Shown here piece after piece: positions 183 to 13,253 of a DNA stretch of 13,294 bases (within the stretch, counting starts at the first letter, position 1; each line of letters begins with the position of its first letter). The position numbers and the translations under genes were made by a program. The notes beneath the pieces were generated by a model. The model was given only the letters and a program-made list of their open reading frames with translations, was not told where the DNA came from and ran no database searches. Source of the stretch: a virus; UHGV virus genome UHGV-0121640; one strand, given 5' to 3'.

Positions 183-404
183 ATGCAATCCATTAACTTC
201 CGTACCGCGCGCGGCAACCTTTCTGAAGTGCTCAACAATGTTGAGGCCGGGGAAGAGGTTGAAATCACCCGCAGAGGCCGTGAGCCAGCAGTAATTGTCA
301 GCAAGGCTACTTTCGAAGCCTACAAAAAAGCGGCGCTGGATGCTGAATTTGCATCCCTGTTTGACACCCTGGACTCCACCAACAAGGAACTGGTTAACCG
401 ATAA
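183..404 (+). CDS. phd: Phd antitoxin (prevent host death), 73 aa
   Basis: Translation [49 protein letters not shown]... matches P1 Phd as I recall it; SD GAGG 5 nt upstream; stop overlaps doc start (TAATG). Confidence 0.93.
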
Positions 405-784
405 TGAGGCATATATCACCGGAAGAACTTATTGCGCTTCATGATGCGAATATAAGCCGCTACGGCGGCCTGCCGGGAATGTCAGATCCGGGTAGGGCAG
501 AGGCCATTATCGGGAGAGTTCAGGCCAGAGTTGCCTACGAAGAGATTACCGACCTTTTCGAAGTCTCCGCCACCTACCTGGTGGCTACCGCGAGAGGGCA
601 TATATTCAATGATGCCAATAAGCGTACCGCGCTAAACAGTGCGCTGTTATTTCTACGCCGTAACGGGGTGCAGGTATTTGATTCACCTGAACTGGCAGAC
701 CTTACTGTAGGCGCTGCGACTGGCGAGATATCTGTATCTTCTGTCGCCGACACGTTACGTAGATTGTATGGTTCTGCGGAGTAG
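404..784 (+). CDS. doc: Doc toxin (death on curing), Fic-fold kinase, 126 aa
   Basis: Translation [22 protein letters not shown]... matches P1 Doc as recalled; translationally coupled to phd (ATG 404-406 overlaps phd TAA 402-404). Confidence 0.93.
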
Positions 785-2127: not shown

Positions 2128-2982
2128 ATGTTACTTAACTGGCAGGGACGCCATTTCATGGAAATAAATCACTCACGAATAACATCGTACGAGATTGCGG
2201 ATTACATGATCCGCACTAAATCTCTTCTATCAGCGAAAGAACTCGCAGCAATTCTTGAAAAGGAATACCCGCATCTGGATGTCGATAAGCGCGATGTTTA
2301 TCTGCGCTTAAAGGCTATCGCTGTGTCTAAGTATTCGTCTGTTTTGATTGATGACAGTACGTGTATTCGCCTGGTGCAGGAAATGCGCGATCAGCAAAAA
2401 GACGATGATGAAGGTACTCCGCCTGAATACCGTATCGCGAGCATGCTAAACAGCTGTTCCGCGCAGATAAGCAGCCTGATCAACACCATTTACAGCATCC
2501 GGAATAACTATCGAAAAGAAAGCCGGGAGGCGGAAAAGCACGCTTTGTCTATGGGGCAAGCTGGCATTGTTAAGCTGGCATACGAACGAAAGCGTGAAAA
2601 TAACTGGTCAGTGCTGGAAGCAGCTGAATTCATCGAGGCGCATGGTGGGAAAGTTCCGCCCCTGATGCTGGAGCAAATCAAAGCCGATCTGCGTGCTCCT
2701 AAGACCAATACCGATGACGAGGAAAACCAAACAGCATCTGGCGCTCCATCCCTTGAAGATCTGGATAAAATCGCACGAGAACGGGCCGCCAGCCGCCGCG
2801 CTGATGCCGCATTGTGGATTGAGCATCGTAGAGAAGAAATTGCCGGTATCGTCGATACAGGTGGTTATGGTGATGTCGATGCGGAAGGCATATCAAACGA
2901 AGCATGGCTTGAACAGGAGCTGGACGAAGACGAGGAGGAAGACGAAGAAGTTACCCGCAAACTGTACGGGGATGATGATTAA
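2128..2982 (+). CDS. Hypothetical 284-aa protein with strongly acidic C-terminal tail (DEDEEEDEE); operator-controlled; possibly a late-gene activator (Lpa-like) or terminase small-subunit-like protein
   Basis: Long ORF with coding-like composition; no Walker A; no P1 pac-type TGATCA hexamer cluster inside. Function not assignable from sequence. Confidence 0.6.
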
Positions 2983-3934
2983 TGGCCAGAAGTTGCGTAA
3001 CCGCATCTTATTACTGTCACAGCCTACACGCCCAAGCGGCTATTTCTACGATACACACCATAAACTGGCCAAGCGTCCTGGTAACCCAGATGGCGTTTAT
3101 ACGGCGATCACGCTTAACAGTGAGGAATCACCGCTGGTAACGCCAGAATTTATCAAAATGAAGCTGGCGGAGTACGGCGGGCGTGATAACCCTATGTACA
3201 TGATTAAGGTACGCGGCCTATTCCCTAAATCACAGGACGGATTCCTTCTTGGACGTGATGAGGTTGAACGTGCGACGCGGCGGAAAGTCAAGATTGCCAA
3301 AGGATGGGGCTGGCTTGCATGTGTGGACGTTGCTGGTGGTACAGGACGGGATAAGTCCGTTATCAATATCATGATGGTGTCCGGCCAGCGAAATAAACGC
3401 CGTGTAATCAACTATCGAATGCTGGAATACACAGACGTTACAGAAACGCAGCTTGCCGCCAAAATTTTCGCAGAATGTAATCCTGAGCGATTCCCCAATA
3501 TCACCATAGCGATAGACGGCGATGGCCTGGGTAAAGCAACGGCGGATCTGATGTACGAGTATTATGGTATTACCGTACAGCGCATACGCTGGGGTAAAAA
3601 GATGCATAGCCGTGAAGATAAGAGCCTGTACTTTGATAAGCGTGCTTATGCCAATGTTCAAGCCGCAGAGGCCGTAAAATCTGGTCGTATGAGACTGGAT
3701 AAGGGTAATGAAACTATTGAGGAAGCGTCGAAAATCCCTGTAGGGATTAACTCCGCAGGTCAATGGCGGGTGATGACTAAGGAAGACATGAAGAAAAAGC
3801 TCAACCTGCACTCACCAGACCATTGGGATACATATTGTTTCGCTATGCTGGCGGATTATGTTCCCCAGGATGAGGTGCTAAGCGTCGAAGACGAAGCGCA
3901 GGTTGATGAAGCTCTGGCATGGCTTAATGAATAA
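2972..3934 (+). CDS. Terminase large subunit-like protein, C-terminal RNase H-fold nuclease half only (about 320 aa); no Walker A/B ATPase motifs; start uncertain (ATG 2972 or 2975)
   Basis: Motifs LLLSQP (ATPase motif III-like), [41 protein letters not shown] resemble acidic catalytic motifs of terminase nuclease domains. The upstream 2693-2971 extension in the track looks non-coding (overlaps 2128 ORF in another frame). Confidence 0.5.
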
Positions 3935-4294: not shown

Positions 4295-4516
4295 GTGGCT
4301 ACTATCCCTACCCCTGCTCATCCTGAATTTATCTGGCGCTTTTACTCCTGCCAAAAACGTCACTATCACTTCGTTATTGCACCGACAGAAGATGAGGCAC
4401 GTTCTCAGCTTCCTGACGCCCCATGTATTTTCTCTGCCCGTTTTTCCACTGATTCACGCAATTCTCTCAGTTACTGGTGCCTCCCTGTTAACGCTTCTGC
4501 TCAGGAGGGACTATGA
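4295..4516 (+). CDS. 73-aa small protein, GTG start, translationally coupled to the antirepressor (ATGA overlap); icd-like position in an immI-type operon
   Basis: Strong SD AAAGGAGG (4279-4286) 8 nt before GTG 4295; stop TGA 4514-4516 overlaps ATG 4513. Size matches recalled P1 Icd (73 aa); sequence identity not verified. Confidence 0.5.
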   Translation: MATIPTPAHPEFIWRFYSCQKRHYHFVIAPTEDEARSQLPDAPCIFSARFSTDSRNSLSYWCLPVNASAQEGL

Positions 4517-5625
4517 GAACATCGTTAGTTACCCGTGAAGAGATGATCGAGGCAATTGAACAGCACACTGCCTGTATCAGTACCAGGGATATACCTGGCG
4601 TTATTGCCAACTACTTCATGATCACCAAACAACTTTACCGGAGAAAGGACAAACACGCGGTTCACCGCATTCTGCTAACCGATATCCGAGAATACCTGCT
4701 CGAACAGGGTCATCTGAATTACGCAACCGTCGCAGCCGAAGCACGCAAGGAGGCACACAGAATGAAAGCAACTAACGTTAAATCAGAAAAAATTTATGCA
4801 CCTTCAGTTCAGGAATCGGAACTGGTGGTTGTTCAGAATCAGCCGGATGAAATTCCCGTTCTGGAATGGCAGGGAGTACGTGTCGTGACAACCGAAACTC
4901 TTGCTAGAGGGTATGGGGTCGATGAAGCCAATATTCGCAACAATTTGTCTCGCAACCTTGACCGCTTTGAAGAAGGTAAGCATTACTTTCTTCTAACTGG
5001 TTTAAAATTAAGAGAATTTAAGAACAGAGTAACTGGAAGTTACTCTGTTGGTAAGAACGCCAGAAGCCTTACACTCTGGACAGAGCGCGGCGCTGCACGC
5101 ATGTCTAAGATCGTGGACACAAATGAAGCATGGGCATTCTTTGAAAAACTGGAAGACAGCTACTTCCGACAAAAAGAACAGCAACCGGTTGCAATCCCCC
5201 AAACATTACCAGAAGCCCTACGCCTGGCTGCCGAACTGGCTGAACAAAAGCAGCTTCTGGAACAGAAAGCCCACCAGCTAAATCAGCAGCTGGTGGCCGC
5301 CGCTCCTAAGGTCGATTTTGCCGACCGGGTATCAGTAGCTAAAGGGATCCTGATTGGGAATTTTGCAAAGGTTGTTGGACTTAAGCAAAACGCGCTGTTT
5401 GCCTGGTTACGGGAGAACGGCATCCTGATAGCGTCCGGTGGACGTAAAAATGTGCCGTTCCAGCAGTACATCAACGCGGGGTATTTCACGGTGAAAGAAG
5501 TGGTGCTGGATGATGAAAATGGCTACCAGATACGGCTGACGCCCCAATTAACGGGTAAAGGCCAGCAGTGGTTGACGCGTAAACTGCTCGATGCTGGCTT
5601 GTTAAAACCGGTGGCGGCTGAATAA
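4513..5625 (+). CDS. ant: Phage antirepressor, N-terminal ORF6N-type and C-terminal KilAC-type domains (370 aa); nested in-frame internal start at 4762 (287 aa) with its own SD, Ant1/Ant2-like
   Basis: ORF6N-like stretch LEWQGVRVVTTETLARGYGVDEANIRNNLSRNLDRFEEGKHYFLLTGLKLREF; KilAC-like stretch VSVAKGILIGNFAKVVGLKQNALFAWLRENGIL...QQYINAGYF; SD AAGGAGG (4747-4753) before ATG 4762. Sizes fit recalled P1 Ant1/Ant2 (42/32 kDa). Confidence 0.75.
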   Translation: MRTSLVTREEMIEAIEQHTACISTRDIPGVIANYFMITKQLYRRKDKHAVHRILLTDIREYLLEQGHLNYATVAAEARKEAHRMKATNVKSEKIYAPSVQESELVVVQNQPDEIPVLEWQGVRVVTTETLARGYGVDEANIRNNLSRNLDRFEEGKHYFLLTGLKLREFKNRVTGSYSVGKNARSLTLWTERGAARMSKIVDTNEAWAFFEKLEDSYFRQKEQQPVAIPQTLPEALRLAAELAEQKQLLEQKAHQLNQQLVAAAPKVDFADRVSVAKGILIGNFAKVVGLKQNALFAWLRENGILIASGGRKNVPFQQYINAGYFTVKEVVLDDENGYQIRLTPQLTGKGQQWLTRKLLDAGLLKPVAAE

Positions 5626-9866: not shown

Positions 9867-10017
9867 TAAATATATTATTTTTAATCTGAAATAATTGACA
9901 ACTGACAAGTGACTTCAGTCAGAATCATCACATGCCCGGTACGGATGGATCCCTTTTCAAATATTCCATGGACGGCACAGTCTGAGTACCGGGCGCTACC
10001 TTCAGTTGTATTGCTAA

Positions 10018-10043
10018 GCCGCCGCTGGTGGCTTTTCTTTTTT
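10018..10043 (+). terminator. Hairpin (8 bp incl. one G-U, 3-nt loop) followed by TTTTCTTTTTT, upstream of the mat-like start
   Basis: Read directly; lies inside the 9909-start ORF extension, arguing for the shorter start. Confidence 0.4.
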
Positions 10044-10055
10044 GTAGGGGGCGCT

Positions 10056-10697
10056 ATGGATAAGAAAATATGCGTTGTTTCGATGAGCGTCGGCAAACCG
10101 GCGTCAATGACTGCTGCATGGATCAACAATGAGCTAATAATGGCTGAGCGGACCAGCTACCCTGAACGCCGTCGCGATATGGAACTCCAGCTGCTGCGCG
10201 AATTGCGAGAAAAAGAGGAAAAGGGTTTTATCGTGCTGGTGGAAGAGGAAAACAGCTTTATTACTGGTCGAGTTGGCCAGCGTGTAAGGTTGCGCGATCC
10301 CTTCATGAACGGCAGGCCGGTACTAATTGAGGCAATGCAGATTTATAAGGAGCTGGAACGCCAGAAAGCAATCAAGTTACCGCGCAAGGAATCCGGCAAA
10401 TACATCCTCCACCAAAGCATCTTCGATTCCGAACACGACAAAAAAGGCGATGAATTTTTCAACATCAACTGGAGCGAAATAACGACAGAGCATGTTCTGA
10501 CGTTACTATGTTGCTTTGCGACGGAATACAACAACGTTGCCAGCGCAGACTACATCAGGGCAATGGCTGGAGAAGTTGAGGCACGCCAGGAACCATCGTT
10601 ACTAAGCCCTCTGATTAACATAATTCGCGGAACCCAAACGCTGGCACAAAAACAGGTGCCTAAGGGAGTATTAACAGGAAAAGGAAATTATCTATAA
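10056..10697 (+). CDS. Hypothetical 213-aa protein in the position of P1 mat (particle maturation); track start 9909 (GTG) probably too far upstream
   Basis: ATG 10056 has SD AGGGGG 5 nt upstream; N-terminal extension from 9909 is hydrophobic and low-complexity and contains a terminator-like hairpin. Confidence 0.5.
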   Translation: MDKKICVVSMSVGKPASMTAAWINNELIMAERTSYPERRRDMELQLLRELREKEEKGFIVLVEEENSFITGRVGQRVRLRDPFMNGRPVLIEAMQIYKELERQKAIKLPRKESGKYILHQSIFDSEHDKKGDEFFNINWSEITTEHVLTLLCCFATEYNNVASADYIRAMAGEVEARQEPSLLSPLINIIRGTQTLAQKQVPKGVLTGKGNYL

Positions 10698-10753
10698 ACG
10701 TCAATGCATTAGGGTATACTTCTCCGTAGAACTATAAGTAAATGGAGTAAGTA

Positions 10754-12058
10754 ATGAGCGAGTATATAGAAATTGCCTATGCAGCAGCTACACATAGGCT
10801 GTGCTTTCTTACAGGCACTGGATTTTCAAAGGCTGTTTCTGATGATAAAGCCCCAAGTTGGCAATCTTTATTGGAGCAACTGTGCGGTTTATTGAAGGAT
10901 GGTGACTCACTCAAAGAGGAATTATTTCCTGATGGAAAAGCAAAAGACCTTAGCCTTGAAGAGGCTGCTCAGGTTATTGCACTAAAATTTATACTTTCGG
11001 GGAAAAATATTTACCAGGAGATTGAGAAAATCATAGCCTCAATCGAACTTGATCCATCAATTGAATATATTCAAGACTTTTTCAAAGAAAACACATTTAA
11101 AGTAATTACGACAAATTATGACAAGTTAGCAGAAAAACTGGCTGGAGAGAATCGAACGTGTACAATCACCCCCGGCCTGCCAATTCCAAAATATAATTGT
11201 GAGGTTAAAGTCTACCATGTTCACGGCTCTATAGACTCCCCATCAGATATGGTTGTTACTAGCGAGGATTATTTCAGATTTATAAATGGTAATTCTTACT
11301 TTTCAAATAAACTAAGCACAGTTCTACATGAAAACACTATTGTTATTCTTGGCTATTCTCTAAGTGACGCGAACCTCAAGGCGATTATAAATGAATATAA
11401 GGTATTTTCACGGGACAACGTAATGTCCTCCAATATTTTCCTTATTTCCCGAGGGAAACTATTGCAACCTATTAAAGATTACTATTTTTCCTGCTTTGGG
11501 ATTAGGGTTATAGATAAAACAGAGGTGTCTGATTTCTTTAGAAAACTTAACAAGAAAATTCCAGAAGCAAAAAAAATAAAAGACAAATTGAGGCACTCAA
11601 TCAAATCGGTAATAAAAAACGGAAGAGAGTATAAAATAGAGTTCTTGAAGTTAGAGGATTCTTTTTATCATATCATTTCCTCCATTTCATCATCTGGATA
11701 TAGCTGGAATGATGAAAAGGTATTAAATGTTTTTTGTGATATAATAGATAAAAAAATAGATCTTACTAAAGAGTCTGGCGCATGGGAGCAGTATGAACAC
11801 CTGGCAAAATGGCTTATTTATTTCGGTAGTTTATTTGAAGTAAAAGGAACCAACTTTGAGAAAAAATACATACATGCGGTTGAACACTCAATGACTTATA
11901 TGAATAAACCTTACGAAACAGGCTACTCATGGCGAGCATATCTAGCCTGGAAAACAAAATGGCCTTCACTGACAGCATCTAACCGCTCTCTTATTAAGAG
12001 TAAGATGGAAGAAATCCCGCTACAACAGATTCACGATATTATATCTAAGTTTATATAG
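10754..12058 (+). CDS. SIR2-family (sirtuin-like, DHS-like NAD-binding fold) protein, 434 aa: N-terminal predicted NADase domain + unassigned C-terminal domain of about 180 aa; candidate defense effector
   Basis: Motif series FLTGTGFS, TTNYDKLAEK, YHVHGS, VILGYSLSDANL in the order and spacing seen in ThsA/DSR-type SIR2 domains; SD GGAG 7 nt before ATG; gene visibly AT-rich versus flanks. Confidence 0.8.
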   Translation: MSEYIEIAYAAATHRLCFLTGTGFSKAVSDDKAPSWQSLLEQLCGLLKDGDSLKEELFPDGKAKDLSLEEAAQVIALKFILSGKNIYQEIEKIIASIELDPSIEYIQDFFKENTFKVITTNYDKLAEKLAGENRTCTITPGLPIPKYNCEVKVYHVHGSIDSPSDMVVTSEDYFRFINGNSYFSNKLSTVLHENTIVILGYSLSDANLKAIINEYKVFSRDNVMSSNIFLISRGKLLQPIKDYYFSCFGIRVIDKTEVSDFFRKLNKKIPEAKKIKDKLRHSIKSVIKNGREYKIEFLKLEDSFYHIISSISSSGYSWNDEKVLNVFCDIIDKKIDLTKESGAWEQYEHLAKWLIYFGSLFEVKGTNFEKKYIHAVEHSMTYMNKPYETGYSWRAYLAWKTKWPSLTASNRSLIKSKMEEIPLQQIHDIISKFI

Positions 12059-12066
12059 TATATTTA

Positions 12067-12095
12067 TCTCCGGCCTAATCTCCCTAGGCCGGAGA
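12067..12095. terminator. Hairpin TCTCCGGCC-taatctcccta-GGCCGGAGA between convergent SIR2-like gene and lxc-like gene; possible bidirectional terminator
   Basis: 9-bp perfect stem read directly; downstream TTCTT on the plus strand. Confidence 0.45.
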
Positions 12096-12099
12096 GTTC

Positions 12100-12348
12100 T
12101 TAATCAGCATTCAGGAGCAATGCGTTATCTATGATGATCTGCTCCCATTCCTCGAATGCCCGATCGCGGACGCCCTGGGGAACGCTGTTAGTTTTGAAAT
12201 CGACGACCGTCCGCCATTTTCCGTCCGGACGGTACATGCGCAGAGCTTTACTTCCCCCTTCCCTGCGCACCTCAACGTTATGCTTGTCAGCAAACTCTTG
12301 TAATGCTCGTAGCGTCCCATGCTTTACTGTGTAGTATCGCTTTTTCAA
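12100..12348 (-). CDS. 82-aa protein, TTG start overlapping upstream stop (TTGA); lxc/bof-like position (C1 corepressor) by synteny
   Basis: ORF in track; size and position match recalled P1 lxc (bof); sequence identity not verified. Confidence 0.45.
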   Translation of the reverse strand: MKKRYYTVKHGTLRALQEFADKHNVEVRREGGSKALRMYRPDGKWRTVVDFKTNSVPQGVRDRAFEEWEQIIIDNALLLNAD

Positions 12349-12785
12349 GTTTTCTCTCCAGCCTGTGCTAAGGCTTCAACTTCCAAATCGTAAGACTCAA
12401 ACTCATAGTCCTGGTCGTCAACCTCTTCAGGCACTGGCAGTAAATGCCAGGCTGAGTATATCTGACCATTATCAAAACGCTCCTGGCTGTAGAGCGTCGC
12501 GGCTATGAGTGTTAGCGCCGGGCGGTCATAACGGTAAATTTTGCGAACGTCACGGTCAACGAGACGACCGAAATTACCATAACCGCGCTCCAGTAATAAT
12601 TTTTTAATTTCCGGCCAGTATGGACCATAGCTGCGGTACAGGCGGGGATTTTTCAGTAATCGCCCGCGTAGCCCTGACAGGAAGAAATCAACGTATTCGT
12701 CTTCTGTCTTTCCTAACAACGCTGTACGGAGTACCGCCTCAAGATATGTTTTATTCGGTTTTATTGTATCAGATAGTGTGGCCAT
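12345..12785 (-). CDS. Hypothetical 146-aa protein; ulx-like position upstream of the lxc-like gene
   Basis: ORF in track with coding-like composition; synteny only. Confidence 0.45.
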   Translation of the reverse strand: MATLSDTIKPNKTYLEAVLRTALLGKTEDEYVDFFLSGLRGRLLKNPRLYRSYGPYWPEIKKLLLERGYGNFGRLVDRDVRKIYRYDRPALTLIAATLYSQERFDNGQIYSAWHLLPVPEEVDDQDYEFESYDLEVEALAQAGEKT

Positions 12786-12818: not shown

Positions 12819-13253
12819 TTATGCGTATTGTTGGATGACGGCCAGAACGTCCGCCACGTTGTGTTTTGTCTCGATAATCCACCAGTTACCCGGGAAATCG
12901 CTGTTCTTCGCCTTCGCTGGCAGCCAGCGAGCGCCGAATTTCGCCTTGATTGCGTCTTTCGCACGGAAAAGAACGCCTTTCATGCCTGAGGCTTCCTGAA
13001 GCCCAAATACCTCGCCAGCGGCGAATTTTGGTGCGTACATCATCTTCAGGTCGGCGGTGGATACGCGATAATTCAGACCAAGAGACTGAGCTATGCTGGT
13101 GGCATCACCCTGTATTGATGATAACTCTTCTTGTTTCTCGTTTCTGGCGGCAATCTCTTCCTCCGTGATGTTGCCAAGGGCCAGGTTTATCCGATCAGCG
13201 TCGGCCTGTTTCTCTTCATCGGTGCGCCCGGCAAGAACCGGTGATGCTGCCAA
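12819..13253 (-). CDS. Hypothetical 144-aa protein, TTG start; function unknown
   Basis: ORF in track; in-frame stop 3 codons upstream of the TTG so not a longer gene; no family recognised. Confidence 0.35.
   Translation of the reverse strand: MAASPVLAGRTDEEKQADADRINLALGNITEEEIAARNEKQEELSSIQGDATSIAQSLGLNYRVSTADLKMMYAPKFAAGEVFGLQEASGMKGVLFRAKDAIKAKFGARWLPAKAKNSDFPGNWWIIETKHNVADVLAVIQQYA

Follow-up and report, generated by a model that had tools for sequence, protein, structure and literature searches.

The window analysed here is a stretch of 13,294 nucleotides from the virus genome UHGV-0121640. It is a segment of a P1-like plasmid-prophage, matching Punavirus and hundreds of plasmids of Escherichia coli, Salmonella and Klebsiella with 95-99% identity, and it carries, in this order, phd/doc, pdcA/B, lpa, pacA/B, ant, c1, coi, cra, cre, c8, ref, mat, a SIR2-family gene, lxc, ulx and the end of darB. 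The SIR2-family gene is the subject of this work, and we propose that it probably encodes a one-gene anti-phage enzyme acting on nicotinamide adenine dinucleotide (NAD+). An earlier interpretation made from the letters of the DNA and its translated open reading frames (ORFs), hereafter the sequence-only reading, had drawn attention to this 434-residue ORF and to four SIR2 motifs in it, and all four are found at the places it gave: FLTGTGFS at residues 18-25, TTNYDKLAEK at residues 119-128, YHVHGS at residues 154-159 and VILGYSLSDANL at residues 197-208. Such a four-motif series is far above chance expectation. The GGAG of a ribosome-binding site lies 6 nt 5' of the ATG start codon. In RefSeq, the identical gene is listed as WP_023356280.1, 'SIR2 family protein', and many copies bear the newer label 'SIR2 family NAD-dependent protein deacylase' from the Prokaryotic Genome Annotation Pipeline (PGAP). 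The PHROG family phrog_7567, whose function is unknown, covers the protein over its full length. The coordinates of the gene, its domains and its surroundings are given in Table 1.

Table 1. The SIR2-family gene, its predicted domains and the borders of the interval in which it lies (window positions, unless a locus handle is given).
Feature	Position	Strand	Basis or remark
SIR2-family gene, sole gene of the cassette	10754..12058	+	ORF listing and translation; ATG start, 434 codons plus stop
N-terminal immune-type SIR2 (SIR2_2 / 'SIRim') domain, residues 1-255	10754..11518	+	Pfam, Foldseek, AlphaFold2
Rossmann dinucleotide-binding loop, codons of G21-T-G-F-S25	10814..10828	+	unchanged in 46 homologs
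Asn121 codon (TTNYD), predicted catalytic	11114..11116	+	phmmer: DSR2 N133 / ThsA TTNYD; family-invariant
His157 codon (HVHGS), predicted catalytic	11222..11224	+	phmmer: DSR2 H171; family-invariant
C-terminal family-specific alpha-solenoid (predicted), residues 256-434, nine helices	11519..12055	+	putative sensor or regulatory module
mat (maturation control), left border of the slot	10056..10697	+	tblastn, 96-99% to Mat of P1, P7, RCS47 and SJ46
Cassette leader, 56 bp, with GGAG at 10744-10747	10698..10753	+	non-backbone; homology to the RCS47 empty site, P1 and SJ46 ends at the mat stop
G+C-rich hairpin, 11-bp stem, between the converging SIR2 gene and lxc, likely terminator	12067..12095	.	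terminator scan
lxc (12100-12348) and ulx (12345-12785), right border of the slot	12100..12785	-	WP_000747846.1, WP_000224043.1
darB, C-terminal end	12819-13253		
Allele B of the SIR2-family gene	L015:4057-5364 and L016:4057-5363		two P1-like plasmids

The sequence-only reading had described the neighbours as phage backbone genes on a P1-like carrier, and this description holds, with mat upstream and lxc, ulx and darB downstream. The similarity to the backbone breaks off exactly at the stop codon of mat and returns at that of lxc, leaving window positions 10698-12099 in between; the genes to the right, lxc and ulx, code for the same proteins in the same order in P1, RCS47 and SJ46. What the slot between mat and lxc holds varies from element to element. 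In P1, it is occupied by res and mod of the EcoP1I type III restriction-modification system, plus IS5, and in RCS47 it is empty, at about 40 bp. In SJ46, it contains a gene for a 373-residue RelA/SpoT protein, which is a full-length match to PDB 7ZTB and is therefore CapRelSJ46, a fused toxin-antitoxin for which anti-phage activity has been shown by experiment (PMC9712102). A RelA/SpoT gene and a hypothetical gene are found in 673R5, and the window has the SIR2-family gene alone. Cargo is exchanged precisely at the mat-lxc interval of P1-like elements. The SIR2-family gene has a G+C content of 35.4%, as compared with 47-53% for the flanking backbone genes and about 48% for the backbone overall, and a different hairpin is found at the same position behind a second allele of the gene (allele B, see below), behind the CapRelSJ46 cassette and at the empty site. 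Because the gene comes with its own leader and hairpin and a G+C content of 35.4%, and because the contents of the slot vary, we conclude that this one-gene cassette reached the defence-cargo slot by horizontal transfer.

The cassette was also scanned for further genes. A reverse-strand ORF at 11814-11978 is the only other one of at least 50 codons and is not conserved in allele B, Rfam gives no matches at E<=0.1, and a trivial 25-nt repeat is the only tandem repeat. A hidden partner, small gene or RNA within the cassette was ruled out by these ORF, Rfam and repeat scans. A two-gene system together with the upstream ORF (9909/10056-10697) was considered as well and rejected, as this ORF codes for Mat, which belongs to the backbone in P1, P7, RCS47 and SJ46 whatever cargo the slot carries.

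The N-terminal part of the protein is firmly placed by profile and structure comparisons. A profile hidden Markov model search confirmed the SIR2-family membership that had been read from the motifs: the Pfam family SIR2_2 (PF13289) matches residues 117-245 with 83.8 bits (cut-off 24.5; E=1.6e-23). A sequence search of the PDB returned phage-defence SIR2 proteins only, headed by ThsA (7uxt, 3e-9; 6lhx and 8bto were also found) and followed by DSR2 (1e-8) and KomC (9e-6). In the alignments, N121 falls on N133 and H157 on H171 of DSR2, the latter being the residue changed in the deposited 'DSR2 H171A' structures, which bears out the earlier claim that the catalytic Asn and His of known NADases have their counterparts here. 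Across 46 homologs, the four motifs are fully or nearly unchanged, and residues G21-S25, T119-D123, H155 and H157-S159 as well as the GYSL.D.NL segment are invariant. The full-length AlphaFold model has a mean predicted local distance difference test (pLDDT) score of 86.2 and a predicted template modelling (pTM) score of 0.83; within residues 1-255, where the pLDDT is mostly 85-96, it shows a Rossmann core with a helical insert at residues 46-115. When this model was compared with the PDB using Foldseek, DSR2 was the best match (1.5e-10), followed by KomC and ThsA; the same comparison with the BFVD collection gave nothing significant, the best match (E=0.019) being to ordinary viral sirtuins. 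No match to the classical sirtuin family was found in Pfam even at E<=1, and the four-cysteine zinc module is missing, with cysteines at positions 17, 44, 136, 149, 247 and 328 only. From all these comparisons, residues 1-255 are an immune-type SIR2 domain with an NAD-binding loop and the predicted catalytic pair Asn121/His157, which corresponds to that of ThsA and DSR2. It has been reported that a single clade, termed 'SIRim', groups all validated anti-phage SIR2 domains and that, in bacteria, the members of this clade show a 12-fold enrichment in the vicinity of defence systems (bioRxiv 10.1101/2024.09.18.613514).

The C-terminal domain of about 180 residues is all-helical in the predicted structure, where it forms a short HEAT-like alpha-solenoid. 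This is in agreement with the sequence-only reading, which saw no SLOG motif and could not assign the domain, and the databases give no assignment either: Pfam offers a sub-threshold OTU match only (E=0.08), NCBIfam gives none and the best E-value in a profile search of the PDB is 0.31. When a profile of the domain was run against 1.84 billion cluster representatives, 97 proteins were retrieved. Apart from three weak, multi-stretch matches in longer proteins (E 4-7e-4), these are proteins of 400-480 residues with the domain at about residues 256-435, or fragments, and among ten of the most divergent full-length matches, all ten carry SIR2_2 in front. At the sensitivity of HMMER, this makes the domain exclusive to this SIR2 family. 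We had considered that the domain might be shuffled onto other effectors, and rejected this, as the profile search gave SIR2_2 fusions or fragments, the three weak matches aside. Within the family, the mean pairwise identity is highest in the SIR2 core (78%, residues 116-255), and amounts to 48% in the insert (residues 46-115), 55% in the C-terminal domain and 43% in the first 45 residues of the latter. When variants of the allele found in the window (93-97% amino acid identity) were compared, the ratio of nonsynonymous to synonymous substitution rates was 0.11-0.19 in both domains, and purifying selection therefore acts on the protein.

The searches brought up at least 665 homologs. The following figures refer to the best 120, which are 405-465 residues long (at least 423 in all but one), cover 90-100% of the query and are 54-61% identical to it, excluding the self-match. 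Their hosts are mostly Gammaproteobacteria, namely Vibrio, Halomonas, Xenorhabdus, Pseudoalteromonas, Marinobacter, Klebsiella, Pantoea and Pseudomonas, and some are Betaproteobacteria. The family is widespread and architecturally uniform, and the window protein is no one-off. The exact protein is present on at least 1000 contigs, where it bears no other label than 'SIR2 family protein' or 'NAD-dependent protein deacylase'. Intact copies of the gene were found in 65 plasmids of PLSDB; of 5426 complete E. coli genomes, 69 (~1.3%) have one, nearly always plasmid-borne, and the records that hold it are filed as plasmids; the phage nucleotide collection contains no copy of the gene, and tblastn against it found remote SIR2 domains only. 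In about 58 further P1-like plasmids, the match is limited to the initial 136-142 nt of the query. Two of these plasmids were examined, and in both the mat-lxc slot is occupied by allele B, which codes for a protein of 435 residues (WP_032271833.1). Its identity to the window protein is 59% over the whole length, with 64% for the SIR2 domain and 51% for the C-terminal domain. The 56-bp leader of allele B differs by 1 nt, and the allele is about as frequent as that of the window.

The sequence-only reading had noted that no TIR, HerA-like or Argonaute partner adjoins the gene, and none was found either in the window or around homologs in nine further genomic contexts. The window neighbours gave no match to TIR, HerA, Argonaute or other defence models in PADLOC and Pfam. 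The nine other contexts have no gene in common, nor does a TIR, cyclase or kinase partner adjoin the homolog in any of them. As no neighbour is shared across the contexts, we regard the SIR2 gene as autonomous. An E. coli homolog lies directly after an integrase at the end of a prophage, another homolog stands beside an integrase fragment and an HNH gene, and that of Klebsiella oxytoca is located inside a P4-like satellite. The Marinobacter homolog adjoins a type I restriction-modification system and a GmrSD-like gene, the Stutzerimonas homolog is directly downstream of a NERD+UvrD candidate, and the Pseudomonas putida homolog directly follows a complete Gabija system (GajA 3e-148, GajB 2e-112) near PDC-S21. 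The Paracidovorax homolog is found near PDC-S26 and an LmuB-like gene, and the Pseudoalteromonas homolog among unannotated genes. The homologs keep the company of defence islands and mobile-element hotspots.

Some further details of these loci (L numbers are our handles for the compared loci) are as follows. The chromosomal E. coli homolog (P0083) follows the prophage integrase by the narP-ccm region (L008:7312-10615, L011:7701-10292); in some strains, a gene for an AIDA/pertactin-type autotransporter lies between it and the chromosomal flank, and in others about 3.3 kb without a called gene. The K. oxytoca satellite (L020:1-12653) contains an integrase, Phage_ASH, a P4-alpha-type primase and Phage_cap_P2, and its homolog, which is 58% identical to the window protein, is flanked by ~1.7 kb and 1.3 kb without called genes. 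In the P. putida island (L023:4235-14566), an unannotated 482-residue gene product is encoded directly downstream of the homolog, and the DUF4917 protein (PDC-S21) 4 kb further.

The protein was compared with the known SIR2-containing defence systems. The best PADLOC match is PDC-S25 (5e-24), followed by ThsA (7e-18), LmuA and Dsr2, all of them via the SIR2 domain only. In its working, the protein would be most like a single-protein sirtuin of the DSR type. DSR2 of Bacillus subtilis (PDB 8k98, 8wkt) is likewise the product of a single gene, with an N-terminal SIR2 NADase followed by helical repeats, and its catalytic N133 and H171 are the counterparts of N121 and H157. However, as the sequence-only reading had remarked, the window protein is far shorter, with 434 residues as opposed to ~1000-1200; the DSR2 model NF041819 gives 30.6 bits against a cut-off of 1400, and over residues 117-212 only, and the DSR1 model NF041818 gives 21.2 bits against a cut-off of 1400. 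ThsA (PDB 6lhx, 7uxt, 8bto) belongs to the same SIR2 subfamily and is similar in size (~480 residues). ThsA, though, depends on the TIR protein ThsB and binds gcADPR through a C-terminal SLOG/STALD domain, whereas here a helical solenoid is predicted and no TIR gene is nearby; the ThsA profiles match the SIR2 part only (positions 107-215 of 478). SIR2-HerA (Nezha), SPARSA (SIR2/pAgo), Lamassu with LmuA-SIR2 and Kongming with KomC have obligatory partners, namely HerA, a short Argonaute/APAZ protein, the SMC-like ATPase LmuB and KomA/KomB, respectively, whereas a single gene lies between the mat and lxc stop codons in the window; matches of the LmuA, SIR2 and KomC type cover the SIR2 domain only. 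PDC-S25 is a lone SIR2_2 protein like the one studied here and also comes from defence hotspots on enterobacterial mobile elements, but its profile (517-528 positions) is covered at 127-283 of 517 only, and the 83 bits obtained are the score of the SIR2 domain alone. The lone SIR2_2 protein pFR88, from a P4 hotspot on an enterobacterial mobile element, resembles the window protein in the SIR2 domain alone (25% identity) and has an unrelated C-terminal part. CapRelSJ46 (PDB 7ZTB) shares the mat-lxc slot and likewise combines, in one protein, a toxic enzyme at the N-terminus with a regulatory or sensor domain at the C-terminus, but the enzyme is an unrelated RelA/SpoT-type tRNA pyrophosphokinase, and the likeness is positional and conceptual only. 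AbiH is a lactococcal, single-gene, mobile-element-borne abortive infection (Abi) protein with a reportedly sirtuin-like fold (review PMC13064643); there is no AbiH match in Pfam or PADLOC at E<=1, and host range and size differ.

By these comparisons, the protein belongs to the SIR2_2 (immune SIR2) superfamily but lies outside DSR1, DSR2, ThsA, SIR2-HerA, SPARSA, Lamassu-SIR2, KomC, PDC-S25 and AbiH. Vassallo 2022, Rousset 2022, the 2026 domain-centric screen in Nucleic Acids Research (which excluded single-gene systems) and reviews do not describe the family, and a membership in the PD-systems of Vassallo was rejected, as no PD-T4, PD-T7 or PD-Lambda model matches in PADLOC. Lone proteins made of SIR2 plus a sensor are an established kind, and a lone SIR2 gene in a prophage hotspot will not surprise the specialist. 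The effector and the logic are already known; what is new is a short, undescribed architecture with a private C-terminal domain.

We propose, with a probability of roughly 60%, that the gene is a one-gene anti-phage NADase module that serves superinfection exclusion and was acquired as a cassette in the mat-lxc defence slot. In the uninfected lysogen, the SIR2 enzyme would be held inactive. Upon arrival of a superinfecting phage, the solenoid would bind a phage-made molecule, most likely a protein, in the way that the helical region of DSR2 binds the tail-tube protein; alternatively, a change of the oligomeric state could act as the trigger. The SIR2 site would then be freed to hydrolyse the cellular NAD+ and abort the infection, as described for DSR2, ThsA and SIR2-HerA. 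The infected cell would cease to grow and the phage burst would be stopped, to the benefit of sibling cells with the P1-like element. The weakest step of this mechanism is the assignment of the solenoid as the sensor, to which we give slightly less than even odds. It is suggested by the analogy with DSR2, by the greater divergence between the alleles in this domain and by the lack of another candidate sensor. The solenoid has no specific similarity to the helical region of DSR2, and it is the architecture, SIR2 plus a 180-residue solenoid, that is analogous.

Several points weigh against the proposed anti-phage function. The activity of the family is deduced from sequence and context, and the lytic growth of P1 itself would have to escape triggering the enzyme. 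The 56-bp leader contains no strong sigma-70 consensus or clear promoter. In plasmid p1493-4, allele B is frameshifted into ORFs of 336 and 86 residues, and the gene is therefore dispensable for the element. The sequence-only reading could not match the gene to a named system, and this still stands: no PADLOC 2023 model, NCBIfam 2026 model or searchable paper up to mid-2026 (newer DefenseFinder models and subscription-only papers aside) names the family. Furthermore, pFR88 was cloned by Rousset et al. (2022) and is listed among the 'additional tested systems', outside the set with robust defence against a panel of eight phages.

One might go further and speculate that the protein is the smallest self-contained 'defence sirtuin', in which the family-exclusive 180-residue solenoid directly recognises a conserved phage protein and thereby unlocks the NADase, and the alleles that alternate in the P1 slot differ in their phage specificity. 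We regard this extended version as possible, but rather unlikely.

Among the alternatives, the one that survives best is defence without bulk NAD+ depletion, in which the enzyme would ADP-ribosylate a phage or host target or cause a transient, non-lethal loss of NAD+. SIR2-fold enzymes include ADP-ribosyltransferases, and nothing in this sequence tells hydrolase from transferase; in addition, DSR1 has been reported to cause transient NAD+ depletion only (review PMC13276650). However, the nearest solved relatives, DSR2, ThsA and KomC, are all described as NAD+ hydrolases and use the same catalytic Asn/His pair, and we consider this alternative unlikely. Somewhat more doubtful still is an orphan effector, which would respond to a small-molecule signal, similar to ThsA with gcADPR or KomC with dITP, produced by a partner elsewhere on the element or on the host chromosome. 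The second rank of the ThsA models in PADLOC, the top rank of ThsA 7uxt in the PDB sequence search and the presence of KomC, a signal-activated SIR2 protein, among the matches all fit with it, as does a C-terminal domain that is short for a protein-recognition solenoid. Yet the ThsA matches are confined to the SIR2 part, the C-terminal domain is all-helical and neither SLOG nor Macro, and the window and the nine contexts are devoid of an adjoining TIR, cyclase or kinase partner.

It is improbable that the gene performs another service for the P1-like element, such as plasmid addiction, control of lysis or induction, or counter-defence. The neighbours lxc, ulx and darB, which handle immunity control and anti-restriction, and the phd/doc addiction genes in the window would provide a setting for such a role, but homologs of the same architecture are found in chromosomal islands and mobile elements without P1 genes, and the other known occupants of the slot are defence systems. 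The empty slot of RCS47 and the frameshifted copy show, moreover, that the SIR2 gene stands outside the P1 life cycle. An ordinary NAD-dependent protein deacylase for plasmid or host physiology, as the PGAP name on many copies would have it, is very improbable, given that this name is an automatic family label and that the PF13289 match, the missing classical sirtuin match and zinc module, the defence NADases as nearest structures and the location in a defence hotspot all speak against it.

Clinical and animal E. coli commonly carry P1-like plasmid-prophages, which are studied chiefly as carriers of resistance genes. If the SIR2-family gene blocks other phages, as we propose, this would bear on the host range in phage therapy and on the competition between phage-plasmids in such strains. 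It would also add a short, single-chain SIR2 sensor-effector to the class of 1000-residue DSR proteins, while the known principle of infection-triggered NAD+ depletion would be left unchanged. Should even the minimal-sirtuin version hold true, the protein would stand for a defence family newly given a name and frequent in the plasmid-prophages of E. coli, and would be a compact and tractable model of how helical-repeat recognition is coupled to SIR2 activation. The abundance of the gene in E. coli phage-plasmids, its compactness and its paired alleles make it a worthwhile and easy target for experiments. The mat-lxc slot, in which a type III restriction-modification system, CapRel, two SIR2 alleles or nothing can be found, is in addition a handy place to mine for defence candidates.

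Lastly, some observations concern the rest of the element. For mat, the longest ORF starts with GTG at 9909 (262 residues), whereas RefSeq and most phage records use the ATG at 10056 (213 residues); the P1 record has a longer form (2716-3468). The two candidate starts are separated by a hairpin resembling a terminator, at 10016-10034. The phd/doc addiction pair is located at window positions 183-784. The closest plasmid, pHNTH9F11-2, has a complete type I restriction-modification operon, hsdM, hsdS and hsdR, directly to the left of the window (L001:4-6000), and together with the SIR2 cassette, an element of this type would therefore carry at least two separate defence loci. The antirepressor region is another variable spot of the backbone: the coverage by phage records in megablast falls at window positions 4513-5625, where a 370-residue antirepressor with a KilAC domain is encoded, as compared with a Roi-like DNA-binding protein in 673R5 (L002:8894-9667).

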